64,000 nt of DNA from Phoronis australis (Eukaryota; Animalia; Phoronida), in contig NMRA01000154.1 of the NCBI GenBank assembly GCA_002633005.1, forward strand, positions 750,948 through 814,947. Reading direction: 5' to 3'. Each line of letters opens with the position of its first letter. Position 1 is the first letter of the stretch. The notes beneath the pieces were generated by a model, which worked only from the letters and a program-made list of their open reading frames with translations, was not told where the DNA came from and ran no database searches. The translations under genes were made by a program, and so were the position numbers. This document shows positions 1,832-63,900 of the stretch, piece by piece.

Positions 1832-2089
1832 AACACATTTGTTGTTATTTTGTAGAAAGTGTTTTTTATTCAGCCATGAATAGAAGACGTGCTCCCGTCC
1901 GTCGCATTCTGCCGACCTCACCACCAGGTGAAGCAATGCCCATGAATGCTAAATGATAAAAAGGGGCCTTTATAATACGGTGTGTTTTACCACACATTTG
2001 AAAACCTGGCTTTCACTGGAGACCCGTAGAATGTTGAAAAATGTATCTGAGGAATGGTGTGAATGTCAGTGCTTGTTGGTTTTCCCAGC

Positions 2090-3150
2090 ATTGCAGACAG
2101 ACAATCTCTTCTACAAGGTATTACTGTAGCCAAGGCTGTTCAAAGCCCCTTCCATCCATTACACAGTCAAGCGAAGACTGCACTTGACAGGTGCGTGAAC
2201 CCCGTCCCTGCAACAGAAACTTATGGACTTCGTCCTAGACCTTTTCGCAATGCCTCCCACCAAAGACTTAGCAGGTGCTCGTGGACTGTCGCTGCTGTTA
2301 ACGCAACCATGGGTCTCATCAGCGAACACATGATCGCGCAAGATGCTGCTTGGCTGCCAGTACAAGAACTTGGTGAGGAACCGAATGTCATCATTGCTTT
2401 CAACAGGGAAGCTCGGGAATGGCCTCCTGGAGTAGCACAAGCATTGTGCCGTTAGCAATGGCGTGATCTTGGCGGTATTAATGCCATCATTGTAGCAACT
2501 GATGAATCCTTCGATGGTGAAACTAATCGTGCGGGATGAGGTTATCAAATACGCTGTGCTAACAACATCATTGCGGAAGGTAGTGGCTGCCGCCACCATG
2601 TATACACAAGCAGTACGCGGATGAAGTTTGAGGCTATACAACGTGCCCTAACCAAGCTGTCACTCCTAGACCTGTAGAATCACACCATTATCTTTGCCAC
2701 CGATTCCATGGCAGTGTTGATGAAAGTTCAATCTGGAAACCTCCCAGCCAACTGGGGTGTCTTCCGATCACGCCACCCTCGTCATGTAGTGATCTGGTCT
2801 TTCATACCTGGCCATGCCGGTGTCTTGATTAATGAGCGTGCAGATTACCTCCCTGGTTCATGCACCACCAACCAACCCCTCTACTTATATTCGGCTGACG
2901 TTAAGCTGCTGGCCCGCAAACACAACCTCGAGCAGACTGCATCCCAACTGGCTGAGTTCAATGATGGCAGCCGACTGCTCGAAGCCGGTATCATTTATGG
3001 CCATGCTGCGAAGAGTCACAAGGAGAGCCGTGCCCGAGTGTTGTCAAATCAAATGCTTACAGGCAACGTCAGCCCTGGAGTTCTGCACCTTCTGCTGTCA
3101 CGGGGATGGTCTGGGGAGGGGAATAATGCACCAGCACATCCCCAATGATC
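2090..3150 (+). mobile_element. Decayed 5'-truncated non-LTR retrotransposon 3' part with RNase H (I/Ingi-like group)
   Basis: SPFHPLH, then RNase H motifs IIVATDES (TDGS-like), SSTRMKFEAIQRAL, IFATDSMAVL and IWSFIPGHAGVLINERADYL, interrupted by stops and frameshifts. Confidence 0.8.
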
Positions 3151-3324
3151 CTGTCCGTGACAGGTATTACAGGTCAGTGCTTGTTTTGTCCTCTGATAGC
3201 AAGGTCAACTATGTAATCTTCTTTCCTTTGTTGTCTAAATGTTGGGCTTGCAATTACCTGACTAGTTGAAAATTACCTTGTTTTGTTATAAAAGAGTTTC
3301 TAAATTGCTTGGCAAAGGGGAACT

Positions 3325-23790: not shown

Positions 23791-24546
23791 ATGGTTCAGA
23801 CTATGGACTTCAACCTTAAGAGTGGTGAGCAGTTGCTGTTCACAAACTTCTCTAATGGCTGGATTATTGAGAAGTACTCCAACACTACAGCGCCCTGTGA
23901 AAGTTGGTTATTACTGCCTGGTGAAAACATGTGGTCTAGTGGTGTTCGATTCGTTCTCTATCTAATTGCCATGATCTATTTCTTTGTTGGTATCGCCATT
24001 GGCAGTGATATATTTATGTGTAGTATAGAAGTGATCACGAGCAAAAAGAGAACAATAGTTCGTTACGATGAGGAGCGACAAGAACCAGTAAAAAAAGAGG
24101 TCCTCATTTGGAACGAGACAGTTGCTAACTTGACACTAATGGCGCTGGGCTCAAGTGCACCAGAAATCCTCATCGCCGTCATTGAAGCTGCTAGGGAACT
24201 GCCGGCGCCATACATACCTCGTGACAGTCTGGGTGTATTTACCATTATTGGTAGTGCATCTTTTAATCTACTCATCATTACTGCCATCTGTATTGTGAGT
24301 GTGCCATCACCAGAAGTGAAGAAGATTCGGGAAGTGGGCGTGTTCATTCTGACCTCATTCTGGTCCATCTGGGCCTACGTCTGGGTTCTGCTCGTTGTCA
24401 CCGTCTTCACGCCAGGGGTTATAGACATCTGGGAGGCATGTGTTACACTTGCCTTCTTCCCTGTCCTTGTGCTCACTGCCTGGATGGTTGACAATGGCTT
24501 CTGGATTAAAAAGGCCAAAAAGGTTGATGTGCATGAAACCAATGAG
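23791..24546 (+). CDS. SLC8A: Na+/Ca2+ exchanger (NCX/SLC8), first coding exon: N-terminus, TM1-5, alpha-1 repeat
   Basis: Contains NCX hallmarks [58 protein letters not shown] and WSIWAYVW...[10 protein letters not shown]. Acceptor ttttttcag|G opens the exon at 23755; an in-frame TGA (23758) precedes the ATG (ttcaacATGg). Donor GAG|gtaagc at 24546/7, phase 0. Confidence 0.97.
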
Positions 24547-34502: not shown

Positions 34503-37500
34503 ATTACTAGTTGATCATTGGGCATATTGGAGTGTTGTAGCACCCTCTGTTGGCCTTTTTAGTTTTGACAAGATGTTGCTAATGTATTGTAGTTATTGCA
34601 AAATAATTTGACAGTTTTTGATAAAGAGGTGGGTACTGGATAGGAGGGTGTACTAACACCCTCGCACAGTATGATTATTTTTTGTGTTAAAGGTGTCTTG
34701 AGCGGCCTGCATCAGATTCTATGAATAAACAGCCGTCCAAAATGAAGTACCGGGGAATATTGTGTGTGTTGCAGACGTGGGCGCATTGCAAGGCCTTATT
34801 GCGTTCATATTGTCGTGGTCTTGAAGGTGGTGAATCTCATAGGTCGATGCACGTGGCAAATGTAAAATCCTTGACCACTCCGAGACAGTCAAGGCTTGAG
34901 CAGCCTCATACAAAACTTGAGAAACTCTGCCTGATAATTTTCCTAAATTAATTGGCTATCTCAGATGAATACAGAACTACCGCATGTCAGGGGTGATCTA
35001 TCTGTGAACCAATAGGTGATCTATCTGTGATCCAGTAGGTGATCTGTCTGTGTACCAATAGGTGATTAGTCTGTCAATCAATACCTGATGTGTCTGATAA
35101 TCAATTACTGATCTGTCTGACAATCCTTTGTGCTTGCCTCTGATTACATGTTACTGAGCATGTGTGGCTCATTGTGTATTCAATTATCGGAACCTTGGCC
35201 ACTTTGACCAGACATTGATAAATTACCAGTGATTATTGGAGGATTATCCTAGCTTCTTCTTGATGAAGATTAAAACTGAGTTTTGTTGACATTCCAGTGA
35301 TTCAATTTTAAACTATTCTAAGGCTTTTCATTTCTCCATTCAAGGATTCAAATTTATGGGAGGAAAATTGTAATCATGGCTTACTGTCGCCAACAAACTG
35401 GCTTGACCGAACAGCCAATTTCTGTATATAATTGATCAGTGTGCATCGTTAATGGAAAAGTGATTAGCCCCACTGCTCCATACATCAATTTGAAGTAAAT
35501 AATTTAGTATTGGGACAAAAACGAATCTAAAAGCCCTTTCATACTGACTTGTCTCCGGTCTGAGTGTAGTGTCAACGTAAACTGCGATGTTAACTAAACC
35601 ATTCATATTGTCTTTAGTAGCTAACTGACATCGAAGTGAATGGTAGGTGACGCTGTTGTTATTGAAGTAATCGGAAGGTAGCGCTGATGCATTGTGTGCT
35701 AAGATTTTTTGTAACGTGACAAGTTAGGAACATTTACATGTCCTAATTGACATAAAACTTATTTCTAATTCAGTTGGTGCCTATTCGAGCAAAATATAAG
35801 CAACTATTAGCGACGACACGTGCCCTTCAATTGTTGAAAATAAAGGTATTTTGAGGGGGACGCATATCCCATCGGTCGCTTTAATTGACAAAATGAAGGC
35901 TATATGTAAGAAATTTAAGTTATTTGTTTCGATCATTTTTTAATTCTAGGGAAATTTATTAAGGTCTTCTTGAAAAGGGGGAACGTGAAGTTAGTTTGTA
36001 AAATTGATACAAGGTTTCATTGAGGGACGGCTTTTCCAGTGGGTGCTGCTGAAAGTACACTGTTTAATTGTTATCCAAATGTTAAGCTTAGAATTTGGAA
36101 AATTTAGAAATTTTGGGGTTGCGCATTAATTATGGTGAGGTAAGGCTGCAAGACCACTGACAGCTGAAAGCTACAATGGCGGGGATACCTGCAATCTTAA
36201 CTGGTAGTTATTCTTGTGCGTACCTCATGGACTTTAAGTTTGTTCCGCAACAAGAGATCAGCTTTCGTTAAGACAGATCCAAGTAACCTATCGCAAGCTC
36301 CACCCCCTCCTTGCATAATGTCGACTAACAAACAATAACTTTTACCCGGCAACGTGTTGTTTGTCGGGTAAAATGGTGGCTTGGAAATAAAGGTGTGTCA
36401 AGAATGATGAGTTCTAAATGGTCAGTTAAGCCGTCACTCAAAATCCTGGTGATAGGTCAATTACAGCTATGCCCCTTTGTTGCGGTTTTGTCTTTGTATG
36501 TCTGCCTGCATGTGTACCTTCAAGTTTGTTGAAGAAACTTCACTAAATTTGCTCAATGTGCAGATAAAATTTGAATCTAATACTGAAAACAAAACTTAAT
36601 AAAGTTAGTGATGTTGCGTCCGTCTCTCACGGACNATTACTAGTTGATCATTGGGCATATTGGAGTGTTGTAGCACCCTCTGTTGGCCTTTTTAGTTTTG
36701 ACAAGATGTTGCTAATGCATTGTAGTTATTGCAAAATAATTTGACAGTTTTTGATAAAGAGGTGGGTACTGGATATTTTCAGCTAAATAATATTAAACAC
36801 CCTCGCACAGTATGATTATTTTTTGTGTTAAAGGGGCCCTGAGAGGCCTGCATCAGATTCTATGAATAAACAGACGTCTAAAATGAAGTACCGGGGTATA
36901 TTGTGTGTGTTGCAGACGTGGGCGCATTGCAAGGCCTTATTGCGTTCATATTGTCGTGGTCTTGAAGGTGGGGAATCTCATAGGTCGATGCACGTGGCAA
37001 ATGTAAAATCCTTGACCACTCCGAGACAGTTAGATCAAGGCTTGAGCAGCCTCATATAAAACTTGAGAAACTCTGCCTGATAATTTTCCTAAATTAATTG
37101 GCTATCTCAGATGAATACAGAACTACCGCATGTCAGGGGTGATCTATCTGTGAACCAATAGGTGATCTATCTGTGATCCAGTAGGTGGTCTATCTGTGAA
37201 CCAATAGGTGATCTATCTGTGTACCAATAGGTGATTAGTCTGTCAATCAATACCTGATGTGTCCGATAATCAATTACTGATCTGTCTGACAATCCTTTGT
37301 CCTTGCCTCTGATTACATGTTACTGAGCATGTGCGGTTCTTTGTGTATTTAATTATCCGAACCTTGGCCGCTTTGACCAGATATCGATAAATTACCAGTG
37401 ATTATTGGAGGATTATCCTAGGTTCTTCTTGATGAAGATTAAAACTTGACATTTCAGAGATTCAATTTTAAACTATTCTAAAGCTTGTGAAGATTAAAGA

Positions 37501-38290
37501 GGCTTTTCATTTCTCCATTCAAGGATTCAAATTTATGGGAGGAAAATTGTAATCATGGCTTACTTTCGCCAACAAACTGGCATGACCGAACAGCCAGTTT
37601 CTGTATATAATTGATCAGTGCGCATCATTAATGGAAAAGTGATTAGCCCCACTGCTCCATACATCAATTTGTAGTAAATAATTTAGTAATGGGACAAAAA
37701 CGAATCTAAAGGCCCTTTCATACTGACTTGTCCCCGGTCTGAGTGGAATGTCGACGTAAACTGCGATGTTAACTAAACCATTCATACTGGCTTTAGCAGC
37801 TAACGGACATCGAAGTAAATGATAGGTGACGCTGTTGTTATCGAAGTAATCGGAAGGTAGCGCTGATGCATTGTGTGCTAAGATTTTTTAATGTGACAAG
37901 TTAGGAACATTTACATGTCCTAATTGACATAAAACTTATTTCTAATTCAGTTGGTGCTTATTCGAGCAAAATATAAGCAACTATTAGCGACGACAGGTGC
38001 CCTTCAATTTGTGTTGTTTGTCGGGTAAAATGGCAGCTTGGATACAAAGGTGTGTCAAGAATGATGAGTTCTAAATGGTCAGTTAAGCCGTCACTCAAAA
38101 TCCTGGTGATAGGTCAATTACAGCTATGCCCCCTTGTTGCGGTTTTGTCTTTGTGTGTCTGCCTGCATGTGTACCTTCAAGTTTGTTGAAGAAACTTCAC
38201 TAAATTTGCTCAATGTGCAGATAAAATTGGAATCTAATACTGGAAACAAAACTTAATAAAGTTAGTGATGTTGCGTCCGTCTCTCACGGA
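34503..38290. other. Diverged tandem duplication across single N (36635), likely two haplotypes
   Basis: 34503-36634 vs 36636-38290: scattered SNPs, a VNTR unit difference and ~520 bp missing from copy 2. Confidence 0.8.
34992..35125. repeat. 23-bp minisatellite (ggtgatctatctgtgaaccaata), decaying 3'
   Basis: Direct reading. The duplicated copy at ~37138-37295 has one extra unit. Confidence 0.8.
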
Positions 38291-38845: not shown

Positions 38846-38955
38846 GCCATGCCTCATGTGAAGATAATTAACCAGGATCACCATGGCAGTGTGGTTCATC
38901 ATCCTCATGGAAGGGAGCTGATCGCACTGGAGAATGAGAAGAAACTCAAGCACAG
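38846..38955 (+). CDS. SLC8A: NCX coding exon 2 (start of cytosolic loop: AMPHVKIINQDHHGSVVHHPHGRELIALENEKKLKH)
   Basis: ggtttcag| acceptor, CAG|gtaaat donor, 110 nt, phase 0->2, open in the frame set by the previous exon. Confidence 0.8.
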
Positions 38956-41404: not shown

Positions 41405-42016
41405 AACAAATACTTACTAAGCGACATTTAGTTAATTGAGTATGGCGTTTCAAGCTCGCAGGCTTAGGCTCTTGATCACATGACTGTTCTTCCCTCCTTT
41501 GTGAAACCGGAAGTAACACCTGGTCGTAAACAGGAGGAACTTGCAGTTCCTGGTCACGGTTATGGGGGGGGGGTGTGTGCACTGCTTAATGTAAGTGACC
41601 TTTTTGATCTCATGGGAGAGCCAATGATCCTCTCTGGATGAAGCTGGTGTATTGTCCGTATTGATGGTATGGCCAGATGAAACTATAGTCACCAATAGCA
41701 GTAGTTTGTCGAGATTTTTGTGTTCTGCAAAACTGGTGCCGAGAGCAGATTTGGTTTCACCAATGAACAGGTGAGAAGGATCCTGGTGACACTGGATCTG
41801 ATAAACAAGACACAACTGCTTCTCAAGTGGGGTTACGTTCTTAAGTTTAGCTGACTGTTAAGAGTGTTAATGGGTTTAAAGTAAGCGTTGGTTGTTATCG
41901 ACTTCCTCCTACTTACGATCGGGTATTACTTCCTGAACAGTGGTGTGGTCAAATGCCTGAGCTGCAGGCTTGAAATGTCATACTCAGCTAACTAAATGTC
42001 TGCTACTAAGTAATTT
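41405..42016 (-). mobile_element. Penelope-like retroelement remnant (GIY-YIG endonuclease) with inverted copy of its 3' end
   Basis: Minus strand gives AYFKPINTL, CLVYQIQC..LFIGETKSALGTSFAEHK and HNRDQELQVPPVYDQVL, typical of PLE C-termini, with frameshifts. 41903-42016 (+) is an inverted copy of 41408-41539. Confidence 0.85.
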
Positions 42017-51011: not shown

Positions 51012-51735
51012 TGTCCCTTACATATAGGGGTAGAGGGGTGTAACATGTATTGGTAGAGGGGTATCACTTACGTGTATTGGTAGAGGGTGTCCCTTACATG
51101 TATTGGTGGAGGGGTGTCCGTTACGTGTATTGTTAGAGGGGTATCCCTTACGTGTATTGGTAGAAGGTGTCACATATATTGGTAGAAGGTGTCCCTTACT
51201 TGTATTGATAGAGGGTGTCCCTCACATGTATTGGTTTGGGGTGTCCCTCACATGTATGGTAGATGGGTGTCCCTTAATGCATTGGTAGAGGGATATCCCT
51301 TACGTGTATTGGTTGAGGGGTATCCCTTACGTGTATTGGTAGAGGGGTGTCCCTTACGTTACGTGTATTGGTAGAGAGGTGTCCGTTACGTGTATTGGTA
51401 GAGGGTTGTCCCTTACATTATTGATAGAGGGGTGGCCCTTACACATGTATTGATAGAGGGTGTCCCATATGTGTATTGGTAGAGGGGTGTCCATTACGTG
51501 TATTGGTAGAGGGGTGTCCCTTACATGTATTGATAGAGGGGTGTCCCTTACATGTATTGATAGAGGGTGCCCCTTATGTGTATTGGTAGAGGGGTGTCCA
51601 TTACGTGTATTGGTAGAGGGGCGTCCCTTACATGTATTGGTAGAGGGGCGTCCCTTACGTGTATTAGTGGAAAGGTGTCCCTTACATAATTTTGTTGATG
51701 GAGAAGTGTCCCTTACGTACATTGGTAGAGGGGTT
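51012..51735. repeat. 26-27-bp minisatellite (tgtcccttacgtgtattggtagagggg), roughly 27 units
   Basis: Direct reading. It generates the spurious repetitive ORFs (VLVEGCPLR). Confidence 0.95.
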
Positions 51736-52255
51736 TACCTAGCATGTAAAGGGTTTCTTTACTGGCACGTGTCTGAAACTGCATGGTTTTATGCCCTTTG
51801 TCTATTTTTAGAATACTTTAATCACATGGATTATTTCATTGTAATATTTAGGGCTTGGTTTGTTAACTTTTCTAAAGAATATTAACCACTGAGGAACAAC
51901 CGTAGTACGTCTACTGATGATTTTTGTATATTAGACACCGAACTTCCATGACTGTGCAGCTATGTCTCCATCTGTGAGATCTTTGTGAATTATGACAATT
52001 GTATTCCTTTGAATGTGTGAACATATCAAAGCTTCTTTTTGACATATCTGATTACTGCTGTGCCTTGTGGTGACGATTTTATTTTTTACCTCTGTCTCTG
52101 CATTTTGGAGTTCCATTTGGGATTTTCATAAAATTTGGCTTAAATAGGCTTGACTCCATTAGGGAGATGAAATTTTCTCATTTTCAGATGGCTTCAATAT
52201 ATTCTGTGCCCCTAGTTCAGATCTACACGATATCCTCTCAAATTAGCAAAATCCA

Positions 52256-53599: not shown

Positions 53600-54982
53600 G
53601 TACAAGCTACACTCTGCTTGTTGTATGGTGTGATGTTATTATAACTACAGAGGTCGCCACAGTAGCACAGCATGATGCCTGTGGCACGTCTGCAACAGAA
53701 ACTTGACTGAGAAACTGCCAACTGTCAATTTTGAAACAGCAGTTTACTGATTAGCTGTTCTAAAGCACTTGAAATGCAGTTTGAAAGTTTGTTTTATCTA
53801 TGGTCATAAATCCAGTGGTAGCTAAGTGGGTCTTGGGCAGTGTGCTTTTCAGAGCAGCAAAAATGTTGCAACTACATAAAGTTGATAATTTATTTTATTA
53901 ACGACTAACTTCAAAAGCCCCGATACTGAACTGTTCGCAAATTGATATCGAAGTTGTGACTGTCTTAGCTCAAGCCCTGACTTGTGACCTTGCGATAAAA
54001 CAGGCCCACGATGAAATTTGTAAAATTTAAAATTTAATAAGAGTCAAGTTTGAGTTGCATTTCCTCCAGCATGCTATGTGCTTTTCACTTCCACTAAACA
54101 CTTTGTATTGTTTTATTGGAGATCACTTGGACGAATGCTATTTAAGTTAAATGTATTGGTGTTTGGACGAATTAAGAAGTCCTTACGTTACTACTGTAAA
54201 TCTAATCCTTGTCATGCTACCTGAATTCCTCAGTTGTCACCTCCTTAATGTCTTGCTAATACTTTTGAATGAAATGATACTTTTCTGTTGTGCAGAAATG
54301 ACTGCCCTTTTGTCTACAGTACTTAATGTGTTACCCAGTCCGTAAACCAATTAAAACAATAGTGTTCCTGAAGATAGATTTCATTTTGCTTCAACGATTT
54401 CCATTCAAAATCTGTTTCTAATGTTGAAGACACCAAAGTTTGGCAGTTGATTGGGTTATATGTGGCTGTATACAATTTGGATTGTTTTCTCTGAAATTTC
54501 TTGTTCTTACTGTTTTCCCTCTGTTGGCGTCTGTTGTCTCTGTCTCAGTAATTAACTAAAACATACTAATTGTGCCCAAGGCATGTGGGATGGAGATCTA
54601 ATAGCTTAACAAATTAATGTTTTGCGAAAATGATGATATGTGTGTAAAATTTTCATGAGATAATTACAATTTGGACTAGTAAATTCTTAGAATCATTAAA
54701 TTGGTGATTTAAATTTTTTACTTCCCCATAGTTGTCGTTCCCTAGTCCATTAATGCAACATGTTTTGCCCTATGTGACCTGGTGTTGTGTCATGCCATAC
54801 CTTATGACAAAACCCTTCCCATATGACAAATCCCTTCCCATAATTCACCGTCTGTGCATTTAGATACTCGCACATTTTTTGCACATTTTGCCACCACAGA
54901 GTTACTCGACTTAGATTTTGTGAGGCAATCTTCAAATAAATATCACTGATCTGTTGATGTAAGCTCTTTTTCTCTCTTGTAG

Positions 54983-55116
54983 ATTCCGCCATGCTGCCAT
55001 CAATTCCATTCTTGGTCACAAAAAGTCTCACTCCAGGCCTATAACACCCAAACCCAAAATGGTTGGCATAGTGGACCAAGTTCGTGCCAACTCACAGTTG
55101 AATCAGATGAATGAAG
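54983..55116 (+). CDS. SLC8A: NCX linker exon (R-FRHAAINSILGHKKSHSRPITPKPKMVGIVDQVRANSQLNQMNE)
   Basis: ctctttttctctcttgtag| acceptor, AAG|gtaaag donor, 134 nt, phase 2->1, open frame. Not in the ORF track. Confidence 0.85.
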
Positions 55117-56030
55117 GTAAAGAATTGTACTTCAAATGAATTAATGACAGTGTTTCATTTTTATGTGCCTATGTAAACATGTACATATCATATGGGCGTC
55201 GAGTGTTTGCTGCTATATCTCCTAAGCCGCTAGCACGATCTTTATGAGATTTGGGGGATGTGTTTCTGTGAAGCTGACGACAGATACGACGACAAGTTTT
55301 GGACAGATCCAGTCACTGCTGTACTCCTTAGAAGTAATTCTCTTTTTACCATTTGCGTCTGTATTTTTGGGGTTGCTTGTCGGATTTTCATAAAATTTCA
55401 TAAACAAGTATGGGGGAGTTGGCTAGCTCTTCCCACCTGCAAACGGGTTTGACAAATTTTGTAGTACCTAATGCGTATCACCACCATAGGAAGCATACTG
55501 TTTGCGATGCAGTCGTCAGTGGCGGATTTTGAGGGGGGCCAAGTGGGCTATGCTCCCCTAAAATTCTCCGAGATTCCATTTGGCAGTTCGGGGGTGCCAT
55601 TGTCTGACGGGCAACATCCCGGCAAACACTTGGCCCTGACCCCCACCCAAAATCTGGATCCATTACTGGTCGTTGGAACATTTCAGTGCTTTGTATTCTT
55701 GTTAAATATCTGGTGATTTAACTGAACGAGTGCAAATGTCAAACTTTTTTTTGACAAAACACTTGGACAATTTATGTAAACTTTAAATATATCAGCAAAT
55801 CTATGCAGTATGACAAATACTGTACTGGAAAATTACAAAATTTAATTCTATAGGGTATTACAATTTTGGGCTTGATACTCAATCTGTCTACGACTGTCAA
55901 GACTAAGTCCTTGGCTTATTCTAGTCTTCTAGTCAACACTACAATGCAGCTCCGTATTCAGTTGGATCTAACTATCCAAGTTAAAGTCCAGTGGGTACTG
56001 TGACATTTTGTGTTATATTGTTCATTACAG

Positions 56031-56130
56031 AGGATATGTGCGGCAAGTTTACCTTTGCTGCACCAAGCTATTCTGTTCTGGAGAGTGCTGGCACGCTGGA
56101 AGTGGATGTGTTGTTTCACCGCAAGAAAAT
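56031..56130 (+). CDS. SLC8A: NCX CBD1 (Calx-beta) strands A-B ([33 protein letters not shown])
   Basis: ttgttcattacag| acceptor, AAT|gtgagt donor, 100 nt, phase 1->2. Typical Calx-beta start F.F...Y.V.E..G. Confidence 0.92.
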
Positions 56131-56557
56131 GTGAGTGTTTATAAGTGATCTTAGAGCTCGCGAGGGCTCCTAAAAATTCAGTGTTACCGTGATTTGGTAC
56201 TCAAAGTGTATCTCTGCTGTCTTAGTTGTTGTGGACATTTTTATTCCGCTGTGGTTTTCTCAGTGGATAATGTTCCCACTGTAGTGGTGGTCGTCAGCTC
56301 AGTTTTTGTAATCGATGTAGGATTCGTGCTAGTTTTGAATGGTACCTCATAAGCTTTTCAGTTATCCTTTCAGAATTGTATAATATTATGTTGTATGCTG
56401 AACCTATTTGAGTCAAATTTCTTCTGACCTATCTAACGTCTTCACGGCACTGAACAAGAAAATCTATAATGTGTGAGATGAAATTATCAATAAAAAAACA
56501 AACGAAATGTTGACTTTTGCATGTGGAAATCAATTTGTTTTAAATTTTGTTTTTCAG

Positions 56558-56582
56558 ATCCAAGTCCACTTTAAAAGTTGCT
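56558..56582 (+). CDS. SLC8A: NCX 25-nt frame-restoring microexon (I-SKSTLKVA)
   Basis: ttttgtttttcag| acceptor, GCT|gtgagt donor. Converts phase 2 to phase 0, exactly as the flanking exons require. Confidence 0.8.
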
Positions 56583-57161: not shown

Positions 57162-57341
57162 AATGGTGGAACTGCCATTGCCAACAACAACACTGACGAA
57201 AAGGAAACCACTCTAACAGAAGTTACACCTATGGACAGGGAACTGGAAGACATTATCACAGGAGTTGTCTCAGTTGATTTTGAGACACGCGAAGGAACTG
57301 CTAAGATGGACAAAGATTTCAAATTTGCTCAAGGAAAACTG
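57162..57341 (+). CDS. SLC8A: NCX CBD1 insertion plus strands C-D (...ITGVVSVDFETREGTAKMDKDFKFAQGKL)
   Basis: ttttccttttctcag| acceptor, CTG|gtaagc donor, 180 nt, phase 0->0. Calx-beta motif V.VDF.T..GTA....DF....G.L. Confidence 0.92.
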
Positions 57342-57714: not shown

Positions 57715-58875
57715 TATGTGCCACCTCCCCCCCAGGCTTTATATTGCCGTCATAAGCTCTGTTTGGGCATCTGGTGTAGGCTGTTGTATCTCCTAAATTC
57801 CTTGCCCGATTTTCATGAGATTCAGTAGAGTCGACGTGTTCCTTTGAAGCTAACTGCAGATGAGTTTCGGACTGAACCGATTGCTGCTGTTACCCCTTAG
57901 TAGCAGATTTGGTTTTTTAACTTTGCTTCTGTTTCTACCAAGTTCCTTGACAGCTTTTTTCAAAAAATGGCAAACAGGTTTCTACTGAAACACCAGCAGC
58001 TTTCGAATGCATTTGACGATTTTCAACCCCTGTCGGTCATCTTAATTTATTTTTAGTCTGCTTCTCTATTTGCCAAATCCCTTGAAGGCCATGATTGGGA
58101 AGTTTGGAAGATATATTCTTATTGAGGAGAGCACTTCTGACATTGATTTTTCGACAGGTATTGCTACTGTGGTGTCCCCTAGTGGCAATTTTTCTTTTTG
58201 CCTTGTTTTAGTAGTGCCTCAGTATCTACTAAGTTTGTTGATGGACCCGAGTATTGTGCTGTTTCCTTGTGGAAATTATGATTTTCTTTACATCTGCCTC
58301 AGTATTTACCAACTTCCTTCTATGGAACTTGGTGTAATAGAGCATATGTGCTCCTACACTCCTTATTCTGAAAATTGTATCTCGTATAATGGTTCCAGAT
58401 TTTAGTTAATATATGTCTTATACAAGGATGGTAGTATGTTCCCATTTTTGGATGGATATAAAGTATTCTGTGCTCCTTGTGACCAATTTTTTATTACTTT
58501 TACCTGCTTCTGTGGCATTTGCTTCTATATAGTCGCCAAAGTGCTTGAAGGATCATTTTGAAAATTGACGGGTTTGTTCCTAGTGAGAAGACTGACTTTG
58601 ATATTCAGATGGTTCTATCTATTGTGGCACTCTGTAGGTGCATGTATTTCATCCGCGGCTATATTTCCTTTATCCTTTGTGGGATGTCTGTGGCAAGTGT
58701 TTCCCAGGAATGTGAGAACAACTTTACTTTTGGACATATCTGTGCCCCCTAGTGGCAGTTTAATTTTTTACCACGGCCTGTTTTATTTGACAGATTTTCA
58801 GGAATTACAGAGACAACAACACCTTTTAAACTGTGGAGAGATTTGATTATTCTGTGCCACCTAGTGGCCATTTTT
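57715..58875 (+). repeat. Degenerate subrepeat-rich repeat family (ttcatgaaatttgg / gcc.cctagtggc)
   Basis: The same subrepeats occur at ~22680-23200, ~55190-55440, ~62770-63900 and reversed at ~1037-1370. Confidence 0.6.
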
Positions 58876-59458
58876 AGATTTGTGCATCAATTACCTAAAA
58901 AACCACTGAGTCACTGATCTGTCTTTTCAATCATGCTGTCCTTATCCATTAATTCCCATCACTTACCTATCATCCTGTCATTACCCATTATCAAATTACC
59001 TAACAAACTCTTACTAGATATAAATTTCACGATTCTCTTGTGTTTGAAGGCTGTTGTTTTTTGCCATCTTATGATGTTAGAGAGTGTGAGATTTTTTATG
59101 TAAATTTGTAATTTTACTTACAGTTAAGTAACTATGTAAGTAAAAGTATGCATAACCTTTAAAATTTCGGTGAGATTAGATGTTACTTAACTTCCATTTT
59201 CCTTCTGAATAATGTGATTTTGAAGAGATTCATTTGAGACTCATTTTAGATGTAAAATATTTTTCTTGTCACGTACACCGCTTTAAGGCAAATGTCTTGA
59301 AGAGCCGGTCAAATGCTGTTAAAAGACGTCAAGTAAATGCAACTATTTTTGTTGAATCTCGTACTCTCTTCTACTCATTAAGAGATCCTGTAGTATGTCA
59401 TTTAATTGTTGTGTTTCTATGGGTGAGTTTGATGACCAGAGAGATTCCACTGTTTTAG

Positions 59459-59621
59459 ATTTTCCACGAGGAAGAATTCTGTAAAACCATCTCCATACCC
59501 ATAGTGGCTGATCACCAGTGGGAGGGAGACAATGAGTTTTACGTTATTTTGAAAAACCCACAAGGTGACTCGGGCCTTGGGGACCCCAGTGTTACACGCG
59601 TCCTGATTATTGATGATGACG
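59459..59621 (+). CDS. SLC8A: NCX CBD1 strands E-G, mutually exclusive exon 'A' (IFHEEEFCKTISIPIVADHQWEGDNEFYVILKNPQGDSGLGDPSVTRVLIIDDD)
   Basis: ctgttttag| acceptor, ACG|gtaggt donor, 163 nt, phase 0->1. Calx-beta C-terminal half ending in IIDDD. Confidence 0.92.
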
Positions 59622-59893
59622 GTAGGTGCAGACATGGTTTGAAAAGATCGCTTGATCGGCTTGGGTATGAGCAACTTCAAATTTAGCAAGCCAAGTGATT
59701 TTTATCAAAATAACTTTTTAGCTGCCGTAGTTGTGTTGAGCACCAATTGGTGCATTATACTGGCAGTGAGACTTGTAAAACAGATGGACAGAAATTTTAT
59801 TTTTTTTTTAAGTTGCTCAGGCTTGCTGATTAAGTGACTTGTTTGTTATGAGTTTGTGTGTGTTTTCAAAGATACCACATTTGTTCATTTTAG

Positions 59894-60056
59894 GTATTTG
59901 CAGAGCACGAGTATAGGAAGACAATTTCGGTTCCGATTATCAACGATTTGAATTTCCATAATAATGTTGAGTTCTACGTTATATTAAAAAATCCCGATGG
60001 GGACGCGGGTATTGGCGACCCAAGCATCACCCGTTGCACAATAGTTGATGATGATG
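59894..60056 (+). CDS. SLC8A: NCX CBD1 strands E-G, mutually exclusive exon 'B' (VFAEHEYRKTISVPIINDLNFHNNVEFYVILKNPDGDAGIGDPSITRCTIVDDD)
   Basis: ttgttcattttag| acceptor, ATG|gtaaga donor. Same length (163 nt) and phases as exon A, 32/54 aa identical by manual alignment. Confidence 0.92.
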
Positions 60057-62769
60057 GTAAGATAGTCCCCAGTTTTGCACTCCTCTATCCAACTTTTCGC
60101 TGTTTTGCCTGTGTGTTTCACCTCTATGCCTTCCCGGGAGTTTCTCTTCACTGTTTTAAATGATTCAGCCCGTGCCTTTGCATACACTGAGCTTTAAATG
60201 CACTCTCCAGGTGTCACTCCTCAGCAATGGTCATAAGATAATCCAATGATTTGGACTTTTGTTACTAATACATAATGTCCGTTTTCTCTCCTCTATGCTT
60301 AGTTCTAAGGAGTGACCCAGGGATACCCACTGTAATTTCGCTCACACACAGTTAACCCAAGGGAGTTGACCTCAAACAATATAACTTTTACTGTTGCTGT
60401 GTTGTATCTCACATATTAAAATACAGAAAGCTGCTCATCTTATATATGTTTGTATGTGAGATTGCCAAATTCTGTTTCCATGGAGTGTCAAATGTATTTA
60501 TAAGGTGTTTATTTTTGCCACATTTTACTTTGGGAAAATGAAAAATGTGGACTACGCTTAATCAAATCTAACTTGAACAGATCTCTGTAAAAATTGTATC
60601 ATCAATCACATTTGACAAACTTATATACTCGTAAGACGCGTTTTGCGTGACTACCTCGGTCTTTACTGAATTCTGTCCCTTCGCACTAGTTGCTTCATCC
60701 TAATGTATGCTCCTCAAGCCAATGAGCTGCGAAAATAGTCACTGGAGAACATCTTCACTTAGTGAAGGTCACATTTTATTGAGCGATGAAACTAACAAGG
60801 TGATGTCACACTGCTGTTATTCCGTTTTGCAACATTCTTGCTGTCTCCACTGCAAGCCTATCTGACTGCCATGCATCATGGGTCCTGGGCATCTAACTGG
60901 ACGCCCTAGCACTAATCTGGACACTCTGGCAAGGACGCCCAATGTATCATTTGGACGCCCACTGTCAATAGGAACCTTTCAAGTTTGGACTAGCACATTG
61001 TAATGAATATTAGGAAGCCTCTGAAGGCTCAAAGTGGGGGCTCTTTTTTCAAAGCAGGAAGAAATATACAATGTATATACAAAGTATATATATTGTTGCT
61101 TTGCTCACACTTGGTAGATAGCATTGTAAAAGTCTTGGTCTACAGTTTTTTTTTAGTAAAAGTGCTCACTAGAGAAGGCTGTTTGTAAACTTAAATGTAA
61201 AAACCATGGTCTTTGCATTTTTTAAAAAAATCTGTGTGTTTAGGGGGATTACTTGGGGTGGGGGGTTACGCGTCGGAATCATGGATGCCCTGCAATATTG
61301 GGAACCCCATTTTGGACACCCTATTTTCGAAATCCTGGATAAAGGCCTGCTGACAGCACCACAATAGCTTAGGCTTTTGCTGGTGTTAGAAGGTAGAATG
61401 CAGTTGAATTTACACAAAAATAAAATTAATGTAAGGTCTGTAACTCAGCATAGTGGAACTCGGCCAATAAAACTATCTCAACACACACAAGTGTGAGACC
61501 CTCAGCAGAGACTAGCTGTATACAACAATGTGATGATAGACAGCACACTTTTGGAGAGCTTAGTTTGATTTCAGAATGAAGCTCATCCTTAGCAATCCTT
61601 TGGCAAAGTAATTTCTGTATCCTCATTTAACACACTCCCTTCCACACAGTGCAATGTCCTACACATACCTTGCTTTCATTTCCTTTCTTTTAGTCACGCT
61701 CTCAAAACTCAAGGGTAATAATCCTTTCTGTAGTTATTGAGTACATAGTATGTGCTTTTAAGACCTAGTAGTCATTGGTATAGTCTTGGTGTTACATGTG
61801 ACAGGGACGGATATGATTAGTTTAAGGATGGGGGCGTCACTAATATCTCTATGGTGCATCCTGTCATTATCATCTGTGTGAAATGATCCCTCAGAGTCAA
61901 CTATGTGGAGTATCCCCCGTCGTCATCTACTCTCAACCAGGCTATTTCAGTTACTGAGTTTAGTTTAAGAATATGCAACTGCATAAGGCCAAAAAGCATA
62001 AGTGATTCTGGTATTTTTTCTTGCTCGTTAATAATTTTAAAACTAAGGAAAATGCACCTGAGGTTAAACCAAAATGACGAGGGATTTTTGTTAATTTTGC
62101 CCATTGTTTTGTACATCATGGTCTTCAAAACATGGCTTGTTCTTGCTGACTGGCTTTTGTGCATCTTTTTAAAAAAGCACAAGACCAGTAGGCTGACATT
62201 GATGGGGCAAGCATTTTTTTCTTAGTCGATGAGTACTGGTCTCAAAGTGAGTCGGATTAACGACCAGAACCAACCAATGCTTTTTTGGCCTAAAATCAGA
62301 TATGGTTGTGGGTGTATTGAGTTAATCCGTCCCTGTTCACTTTGCTATATAGTTGTATCTGGGTTACCATAGTAACTTTTAGAAAGCATTGCTATTCAAT
62401 TCTAGATGTATATAGCTGAAACTCGCTAAGCATTGATGTGTAGAGTTTGATTAGAATACATTTTAGCACTTGCTTGTTAGATTTTATTGAATGATGTGTT
62501 GTGATGAAGGCGTAATTAGTTATTTTAACTAAAATGTTATTGGTTTGATGTGTAGATGACACCAGCTTGCAAGTTTTAGTAAAATGGACAAGACATAGAT
62601 CTGTCATTATCTTGCAAAAATTGCTACATGTAAACAACGCACTTACTGTGCATTTTTAATTATAATTAATGTTTTAGTCTCATTTTCTTAAATAACACCA
62701 GTGGGATCATATGTTAGATTCTGTTGACTCTAAACTGATTCTGCATTTCAATACATTTTTCAGATACAC

Positions 62770-63900
62770 TTTTATGCGCCTACGATATATGGCGTCATCC
62801 CCATCCATCCGTCCATAAGGCGTCCACTTCTGTATCTTCAATACCCCTTCATGGATTTTGTGAAATTTTGCAGACATGCTTGTGTCATGAATGAGACAAC
62901 ACAAATGAATTGTTTTGACAGATCTGACCACCGCTGTTCCTCCTAATGGCCATTTCATTTTTTTATGTTTGTCTCAGTCTGTAAATTAAAGATCTTTCCT
63001 TGACGAATTTCCATCTGTGACGGATTCAACATAGCACCACTTAGTGGCCATTTTACTGTGGCACCCCGTAGTGGCTGTTTTTGCTAAGACCCCTGCAAGA
63101 TATTTGTTAAATTTGGCAAGTGTATTTCTATGAACGGGACAATGGATAACGGCAACTTTCGGACATAATTGCAGCAACAGTTGTACTTCATCCCTGGTGG
63201 TAATTTTAGTTTTTCACTGTCTTTTGTATATTCAAAATTCCTTGATTAATTTTCATGAAATTTGGCAATAAGTTTACTTTTTTGGATGAATTTGCGCAAA
63301 TAGTGTGCCACCTACTAGCCATTTTTATTATTTTTTTCAAATTTCATTTTGGTGTCTGCCTTCTATCTCCAAACCACTAAGAATTGATAATGAAAATTTA
63401 TTTGGTAATTGTGTTTCTTCTGGAAAGTTCCTGGCAAAACATGATGTTTGGACAGACTTACTGATGTGGTGCCCTCTATTGACAATTTTGTTGTTTTTGC
63501 CTCAGTGGTTCCATATCTACCATGTACCTCAATAGATAGTCTTGAAATTTATACGTGGTTTTATTGAGGAGAATATAAGTGATGCGAATTTTGTGTCAAA
63601 TTTAACTACTGTGGAATCTCCTACAGGCAATGTTTGTCTTTGCGTTTGCCTGAATATCAAGTTCTATGATGCATGTTCATGAAATTTGGCTAATAAGTTA
63701 CTATCATGAACACATCACAAACCCTGTTGCAGACGGATTTGACCTACATTGCCCCCCTACCGGCCTTTTTATTGTTTTTTGTCTGTTCTTTGTTGTCCTC
63801 CCCATAATCTTCCAAACTTTGTGGAGAATCGTGATGAAAATTGACAAGTGTGTTCCTATTAAGGAAAGCATTGCTGACTTCTTTTGCACCCTATAGGGGT
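62770..63900 (+). repeat. Same subrepeat-rich repeat family downstream of exon B
   Basis: Repeated tttcatgaaatttggc and gc.cc.c.tagtggc motifs. Confidence 0.6.

Follow-up and report, generated by a model that had tools for sequence, protein, structure and literature searches.

The question raised by this locus is whether two neighbouring, homologous exons of a Na+/Ca2+ exchanger (NCX)-like gene of Phoronis australis supply alternative forms of CBD1, and whether these forms differ in Ca2+ sensing. The window, i.e., the whole stretch of 64,000 nt of contig NMRA01000154.1 that was analyzed, holds the 5′ part of the gene on the + strand; the remainder lies past the window end. A first-pass annotation had proposed that the two exons, here A and B, differ most in the Ca2+-coordinating EF loop, and that the B form binds fewer Ca2+ ions or is tuned by pH or metal through a His. 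The explanation that we favor, with confidence just short of even, is that an old duplication produced likely exclusive A and B exons for strands E-F-G of CBD1, B being predicted to be the weaker Ca2+ binder.

Gene layout, domain assignment and orthologue clade

The first coding exon (~23792..24546, +), for which the start ATG is a guess, encodes the N-terminal membrane half (Pfam Na_Ca_ex, E = 8.5e-22; tblastn and HMM matches). Its alpha-1 repeat reads GSSAPE, in agreement with the NCX (SLC8) motif, which is defined as G(S/G)SAPE (PMC4232491). Two loop exons with approximate borders lie downstream on the + strand: one at 38846..38955 (phase 0 to 2; a weak tblastn/HMM match with AG and GT present), and one at 54982..55116 (phase 2 to 1; tblastn and HMM), which bears the RFRHAA helix. 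The exon for strands A-B of CBD1 (56028..56133, +; phase 1 to 2) carries the E385 equivalent (VLESAG), and the exon for strands C-D (57162..57341, +), which ends in phase 0, carries the D421 equivalent (KDFKF). Since the phase-2 end of the former must meet a phase-0 start at 57162, a further exon is needed, and a scan of splice sites and frames predicted a candidate of 25 nt (56558..56582, +; phase 2 to 0) within a long B-C insertion. This candidate is preceded by a strong pyrimidine tract and followed by a GTGAGT donor.

Exon A (59459..59621, +) and its tandem homologue, exon B (59894..60056, +), are separated by a GT-AG intron of 272 nt (59622..59893, +). Both match the C-terminal half of Pfam Calx-beta (E = 1.7e-08 and 3.5e-06, respectively). 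The first of the tandem Calx-beta domains is located in the window, and the model of an orthologue (P0086) has both. The first-pass annotation had placed the contrast at 59498..59974; the pair is real, but that span covers only part of A and part of B.

The surrounding DNA is rich in repeats. Short repeats of one family, which share a core similar to CCTAGTGGC, occupy 57780-58900 and 62900-63850, around the A/B region, and RNA reads from other copies pile up on them; interspersed repeats at 55550-55620 and 60890-61350 likewise show high RNA depth from reads of other loci. AT-rich inverted repeats lie near exons A and B. Two near-identical open frames on the - strand (35439-35723 and 37618-37887), ~2.2 kb apart and intronic, are a recent local duplication or a repeat, and a tandem repeat at 51357-51882 gives rise to repetitive open frames on either strand and to a peak of GC skew. 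The open frames at 2063-3266 (+) and 41453-41857 (-) resemble retrotransposon remnants, putatively RNase H-like and GIY-YIG-like.

The register of A and B against NCX1 was gap-free in HMMER alignments to 3US9, 3E9T, 3RB5 and 8JP0, and with H501 of the 8JP0 alignment as the starting point, the count recovered E385, D421, I449, F450, E451 and E454 as numbered in PMC3386913. The register drawn by eye in the first-pass annotation was hence right. The best PDB stretch for exon A belongs to CBD2; assignment to this domain was ruled out by the gene order and by the terminal DDD, both of which point to CBD1. The structure model was made of the bryozoan orthologue P0086 in place of the spliced A and B proteins (mean pLDDT 80.6). 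In this model, the exon residues occupy strands E, F and G, the first two being joined by the loop, and the model matched the CBD1 structures 3GIN, 3EAD and 2DPK with target TM values of 0.84-0.90. Its strands 473-480 and 490-500 flank the residues that differ between A and B, so that these residues fall in the EF loop and not away from it, as had been proposed. By alignment and orthologue model, A and B are thus assigned to strands E-F-G of CBD1 in a divergent invertebrate NCX paralogue.

Among the best 120 matches listed, relatives of the first exon with 57-69% identity were of placozoan, cnidarian, lophotrochozoan, echinoderm, hemichordate, amphioxus and tunicate origin. In a quick tree of 32 rows, the gene fell within the lophotrochozoans, together with one row each from a bryozoan and a brachiopod (SH-aLRT 91 and 86), and in a FastTree of 52 rows a clade of 36 rows (support 0.84) stood apart from P0332 and P0376, which were called canonical-type NCX by motif. 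Judged from these trees and motifs, the gene is a divergent NCX paralogue and not an orthologue of NCX1 or CALX. The alpha-1 motif GSSAPE is invariant in 33/33 clade rows, and alpha-2 reads GTS[LVI]PD in all 33, the NCX (SLC8) criterion being GTS(I/V)PD; the gene's own alpha-2 lies outside the window. So do its CBD2 and its own residue at the R532 position, which is Asp in 33/33 clade rows. The CBD2 EF loop of these 33 rows, read by eye, is short and mostly basic. The span from E385 to strand C measures 45-106 residues in the clade versus 22-30 in 16 rows outside it; E385 is kept in 30/33 rows, and the D421 position holds Asp in 23 and Glu in 8 of the 33. Invariant transport motifs, R532 changed to Asp, a CBD2 loop that is not acidic and a long B-C insertion in CBD1 mark a second, widespread animal NCX clade, some members of which are labelled magnesium/proton exchangers in database entries.

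Duplication and likely exclusive use of exons A and B

Exons A and B are each 163 nt long, are preceded by AG and followed by GT, enter in phase 0 and leave in phase 1. They share 32/54 residues and 95/163 bases, and a search with an HMM built from 32 orthologues found exactly two copies of the exon in the window. The codons of the 32 shared residues differ synonymously at 22, and overall divergence is high at synonymous and low at replacement sites (pS 0.90, pN 0.29). Purifying selection acts on both exons, and each retains 18/19 near-invariant positions. The flanking introns are no more similar than shuffled sequences (scores of 21 and 19 versus a shuffle mean of 19.5). An assembly or haplotype artefact was ruled out by the low nucleotide identity and the unrelated flanks. 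The branches of the two exons are long (0.27 and 0.28 versus a median of 0.13), and a sister relationship of A and B was not rejected over 54 columns (p-AU 0.56), a result that does not establish an A-B clade. We conclude that the exon pair is an old tandem duplication, with both copies intact and frame-locked.

The frame also bears on how the two copies are used. Joint inclusion of A and B adds 326 nt and brings a stop at the 8th codon past A, 140 nt ahead of the end of B, and a transcript with a premature stop of this type is a substrate for decay by established rules. The same frameshift rules out that A and B serve as two domains of one protein. Provided that the following exon begins in phase 1, to which the orthologue borders point, skipping of both exons would cause a frameshift; most single-exon ORFs of other animals have the same exon borders as A and B. 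The two exons are neighbouring and homologous, of equal length and phase, and have canonical splice sites. Since double inclusion leads to a stop and double skipping to a frameshift, it is likely that A and B are used in a mutually exclusive manner. Steric exclusion is an unlikely means, given the distance across a 272-nt intron. The best duplex of the A-B intron with the upstream intron had -24.4 kcal/mol (12 shuffles, -22.1 to -26.7), and that with the downstream intron -28.8 kcal/mol (shuffles, -23.2 to -28.0), the finer step of the real scan favoring the real sequence; we draw no support for docking-site RNA pairing of the A-B intron from this comparison.

In four RNA runs, the depth was 0 over the bins of A and B and 0-1.2 over those of the two upstream CBD1 exons, the reads being mostly from repeats. 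Three of these were raw-read runs, of which 18-19% each was used, and one was a contig run; at this depth, which amounts to ~1x or less over the upstream exon bins, the runs speak neither for nor against exclusive use. A second version of the exon was sought among orthologue clusters, and none was found in the 153 segment-bearing of 184 members listed from 27 named clusters (15 members listed of the large clusters of 30, 16, 32 and 90). Loop variants inside these clusters were few, with 1-2 residue differences among the members listed. The duplication hence looks lineage-restricted, though old. A search of exon B against longer proteins gave one candidate, which did not pass. The single version among the members listed would suit a locus in which just one of the copies is in use, the other being silent or decaying. 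We regard this as quite improbable, because both copies keep an open frame without indels, intact splice sites and their near-invariant positions, and because synonymous change is saturated, replacement is low outside the loop and the flanking introns have lost similarity.

Three ORFs of other animals deserve mention. P0418 and P0429, for which the same longest contig size (807480 nt) is given, hold two differing versions of the exon; these may represent a tandem copy that arose independently, or else a paralogue, in a tunicate-like animal. P0423 has the loop DDHQWDPTAEF and the motif GDSGLG; its loop resembles that of exon A (7/13 identities, versus 5/13 for B), with which it has DHQW...EF in common.

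Ca2+ ligands of the two EF loops

The EF loops read IVADHQWEGDNEF in A and IINDLNFHNNVEF in B. As first noticed, the two exons differ at seven codons in a row (exon positions 19-25) and have the same terminal DDD. Replacement change is concentrated here, with a pN of 0.69 inside loop 446-454 versus 0.20 outside. The contrast was compared with pairs of orthologues from 45 rows hand-picked from the 120 matches (one per genus, plus two Babylonia paralogues; isoform duplicates, unnamed rows and truncated rows were left out). Among bilaterian pairs of comparable total divergence (18-22 of 49 positions), 8 loop differences were reached in 11/164 and a run of 7 in 16/164; with all 45 rows, each occurred in 18/190 pairs, and in both sets the pairs are not independent. 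The A/B contrast lies in the upper tail, yet it is not unique.

In NCX1, as listed in PMC3386913, Ca2 is held by E385 and E451 (and by D421 in isolated CBD1), Ca3 by E385, D447, I449, E451, D498 and D500, and Ca4 by E385, D446, D447, D499 and D500, whereas E454 belongs to Ca1 and its E454K mutant has wild-type regulation. E451 and D500 each bind several ions, E451 up to three, and Ca3-Ca4 form the high-affinity sensor of NCX1 CBD1 (PMC9820601, PMC3386913). With either exon, the Phoronis protein has the equivalents of E385, D421, D447 and D498-500. D446 is absent from both, being Ala in A and Asn in B. At position 451, A has Glu (at 59522) and B has His (at 59957); at 453, Asp and Asn; at 454, Asn and Val; and at 450, Trp and Phe, respectively. 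Loop 446-455 holds four acidic residues in A and two in B, and the loops depart from the orthologue consensus at 5/9 positions in A and 6/9 in B.

The first-pass annotation had counted three losses in B, at 451, 453 and 454. The change of E451 to His stands as a ligand loss specific to B. That of D453 to Asn is also found in B and not in A, but D453 does not figure among the ligands cited above from PMC3386913. The third is withdrawn: A lacks E454 as well, and in the 45 rows position 454 is Glu in none and Val in 17. A separate set of 44 short ORFs gave a similar picture (Glu at 454 in none, Glu at 451 in 30), and the absence of E454 is, as far as the aligned rows tell, a trait of the clade. 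A does keep D447, E451 and D453, as had been stated, but with Ala446 and Asn454 its site is not intact. By alignment, then, the sole NCX1-listed ligand lost in B but not in A is E451, and A is not an intact four-ion site, having a loss of its own at 446, where B keeps the Asn of the clade (37/45 rows). That B is the weaker form remains plausible from the residues; the proposal rests on one residue, not three.

A glutamate at 451 occurs in 33/45 rows, i.e., in 33/39 bilaterian and 0/6 other rows, and position 453 is Asp in 34/45 and Asn in 7/45. Single-exon orthologues of Mytilus, Apostichopus, tunicates, amphioxus and cnidarians are among those without E451, and Trichoplax has His451/Asn453, as in B; the B-type state is therefore recurrent and viable. 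This would agree with switching to a form weak in Ca2+ binding, or else with a loop of little importance in this clade. The latter possibility leads to a rival account, in which the exons are exclusive but the loop is no Ca2+ switch: Ca2+ binding by CBD1 would be poor or of no regulatory consequence, and the loops would serve to adjust the contact of CBD1 with CBD2 or with a partner, or would have drifted under relaxed constraint. The clade CBD1 may indeed be a poor sensor or no sensor of Ca2+, in view of its prevailing Asn446, the missing Glu454, the Asp at R532 and the lack of E451 in 12/45 rows. Ala446 and the departures from the loop consensus could also reflect relaxed constraint in both exons, and the long branches noted above point the same way. 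Position 450, at which A and B differ, lies in the core of the NCX1 interdomain interface (PMC3386913). However, the wide retention of E385, D421, D447, E451 and D498-500 in bilaterians is hard to explain without metal binding, and the concentration of change in the loop also speaks against this account, which we consider unlikely, albeit the most serious of the rivals.

In the mechanism that we favor, the duplication gave two intact, frame-locked exons for CBD1 E-F-G in a divergent invertebrate exchanger; a regulated choice of A or B, with wrong products removed via the frame, would yield two forms of the exchanger, distinguished by their CBD1 EF loop. The prediction is that version A, in which the hub ligand E451 is retained, binds regulatory Ca2+, and that version B, with His451, binds fewer ions or binds them more weakly. 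Since E451 serves several ions, B would be expected to have a lower Ca2+ occupancy or affinity without it. On the geometry of NCX1, this change would take one ligand from each of Ca1, Ca2 and Ca3 in B, and Ala446 would take one from Ca4 in A; with losses on both sides, a weaker or shifted sensor is expected in B rather than a switch between a perfect and a dead site. Because the CBD2 of the clade lacks an acidic loop and, as in CALX, is predicted not to bind Ca2+, CBD1 would be the only candidate Ca2+ sensor and the only place where splicing could tune it. The gene is a divergent paralogue in a clade without R532, so that NCX1 behavior is not simply transferable to it. Direct data on E451 mutants were not found in the literature searched.

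The losses on both sides also suit a reciprocal tuning, in which both forms bind Ca2+ but A loses Ca4 and B loses Ca1-Ca3, so that they differ in affinity or kinetics in a direction that the acidic count does not predict. The Asn446 kept by B would count here, since the amide oxygen of Asn is able to ligate Ca2+. The D446 position belongs to Ca4 and hence to the high-affinity pair (PMC9820601, PMC3386913), but E451 is the multi-ion hub of a cooperative cluster (PMC9820601), so that its loss should outweigh that of an Asn, and we judge reciprocal tuning improbable.

The remaining proposal, that His451 makes B a sensor tuned by pH or a transition metal, has in its favor a His at the hub of an acidic cluster and the same His/Asn pair in Trichoplax. 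A, though, also has a loop His (448). Deletion of residues 446-499 of NCX1, nearly the span of this exon, strongly reduced Ca2+ sensitivity and did not significantly change proton sensitivity, which maps to His124 and His165 (PMC5806679). This supports a Ca2+ role for the segment and disfavors the pH idea; tuning by His, as the first-pass annotation had it, was not borne out and is very improbable.

Relation to known exchangers

The closest parallel to the favored model of a Ca2+-weak B form is the A/B exon pair of vertebrate NCX CBD2: there too the exons are homologous, one is needed for the frame, and the pair codes for the ligand loop between strands E and F of a Calx-beta domain, setting the number of Ca2+ sites (PMC9820601, PMC4746289). 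The vertebrate pair, however, lies in CBD2, whereas the pair described here lies in CBD1, extends to strand G and thus to D498-500, and belongs to a separate paralogue clade; from these differences we infer an independent origin. According to PMC9820601 and PMC4746289, NCX splicing is all placed in CBD2, and CBD1 is not alternatively spliced and is taken as invariant. A lineage-restricted CBD1 splice switch that converges on the vertebrate CBD2 A/B logic is the likely reading of the exon sequences. A stronger statement would be that NCX exchangers acquired splice control of Ca2+ sensing on two occasions, on the same structural element of different domains, and that here, in an ancient second animal lineage deprived of the CBD2 Ca2+ sites and of the R532 linchpin, the primary sensor CBD1 is itself switched between a Ca2+-regulated A and a largely Ca2+-blind B; this appears doubtful to us.

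Drosophila CALX1.1/1.2 resembles the predicted state in that its CBD2 binds no Ca2+, with CBD1 as the sole sensor (PMC9820601, bioRxiv 10.1101/791178), and in that splicing alters Ca2+ regulation (PMC9820601). In CALX, by contrast, the variants concern five residues of the CBD2 FG loop and not a swapped ligand loop, and the CBD1 site is complete; the interdomain Arg, in place of which the present clade has Asp, is likewise kept (PMC9820601, bioRxiv 10.1101/2020.12.18.423531). The gene is one of the invertebrate genes named 'sodium/calcium exchanger 1/2/3-like', as its first-exon identity indicates, but the other members listed show one version of the exon. On et al. 2008 described NCX-like genes of <35% identity, most of which they predicted to be lineage-specific and without NCX function (PMC2408596); the genes considered here, which may be the same ones, in contrast form one clade with invariant alpha-repeat motifs. 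Papers on mutually exclusive CBD1 exons, on the CBDs of this clade or on its function were not found in the literature covered, most subscription journals being outside the search.

A natural pair that differs in the CBD1 ligand loop alone would offer a ready-made test of E451 versus D446 in setting the primary Ca2+ sensor, and it would also test whether Ca2+ regulation works without R532. The gene further draws attention to an NCX clade, widespread among animals and with its transport motifs intact, in which the exon pair, its function predicted, appears to be limited to one lineage.
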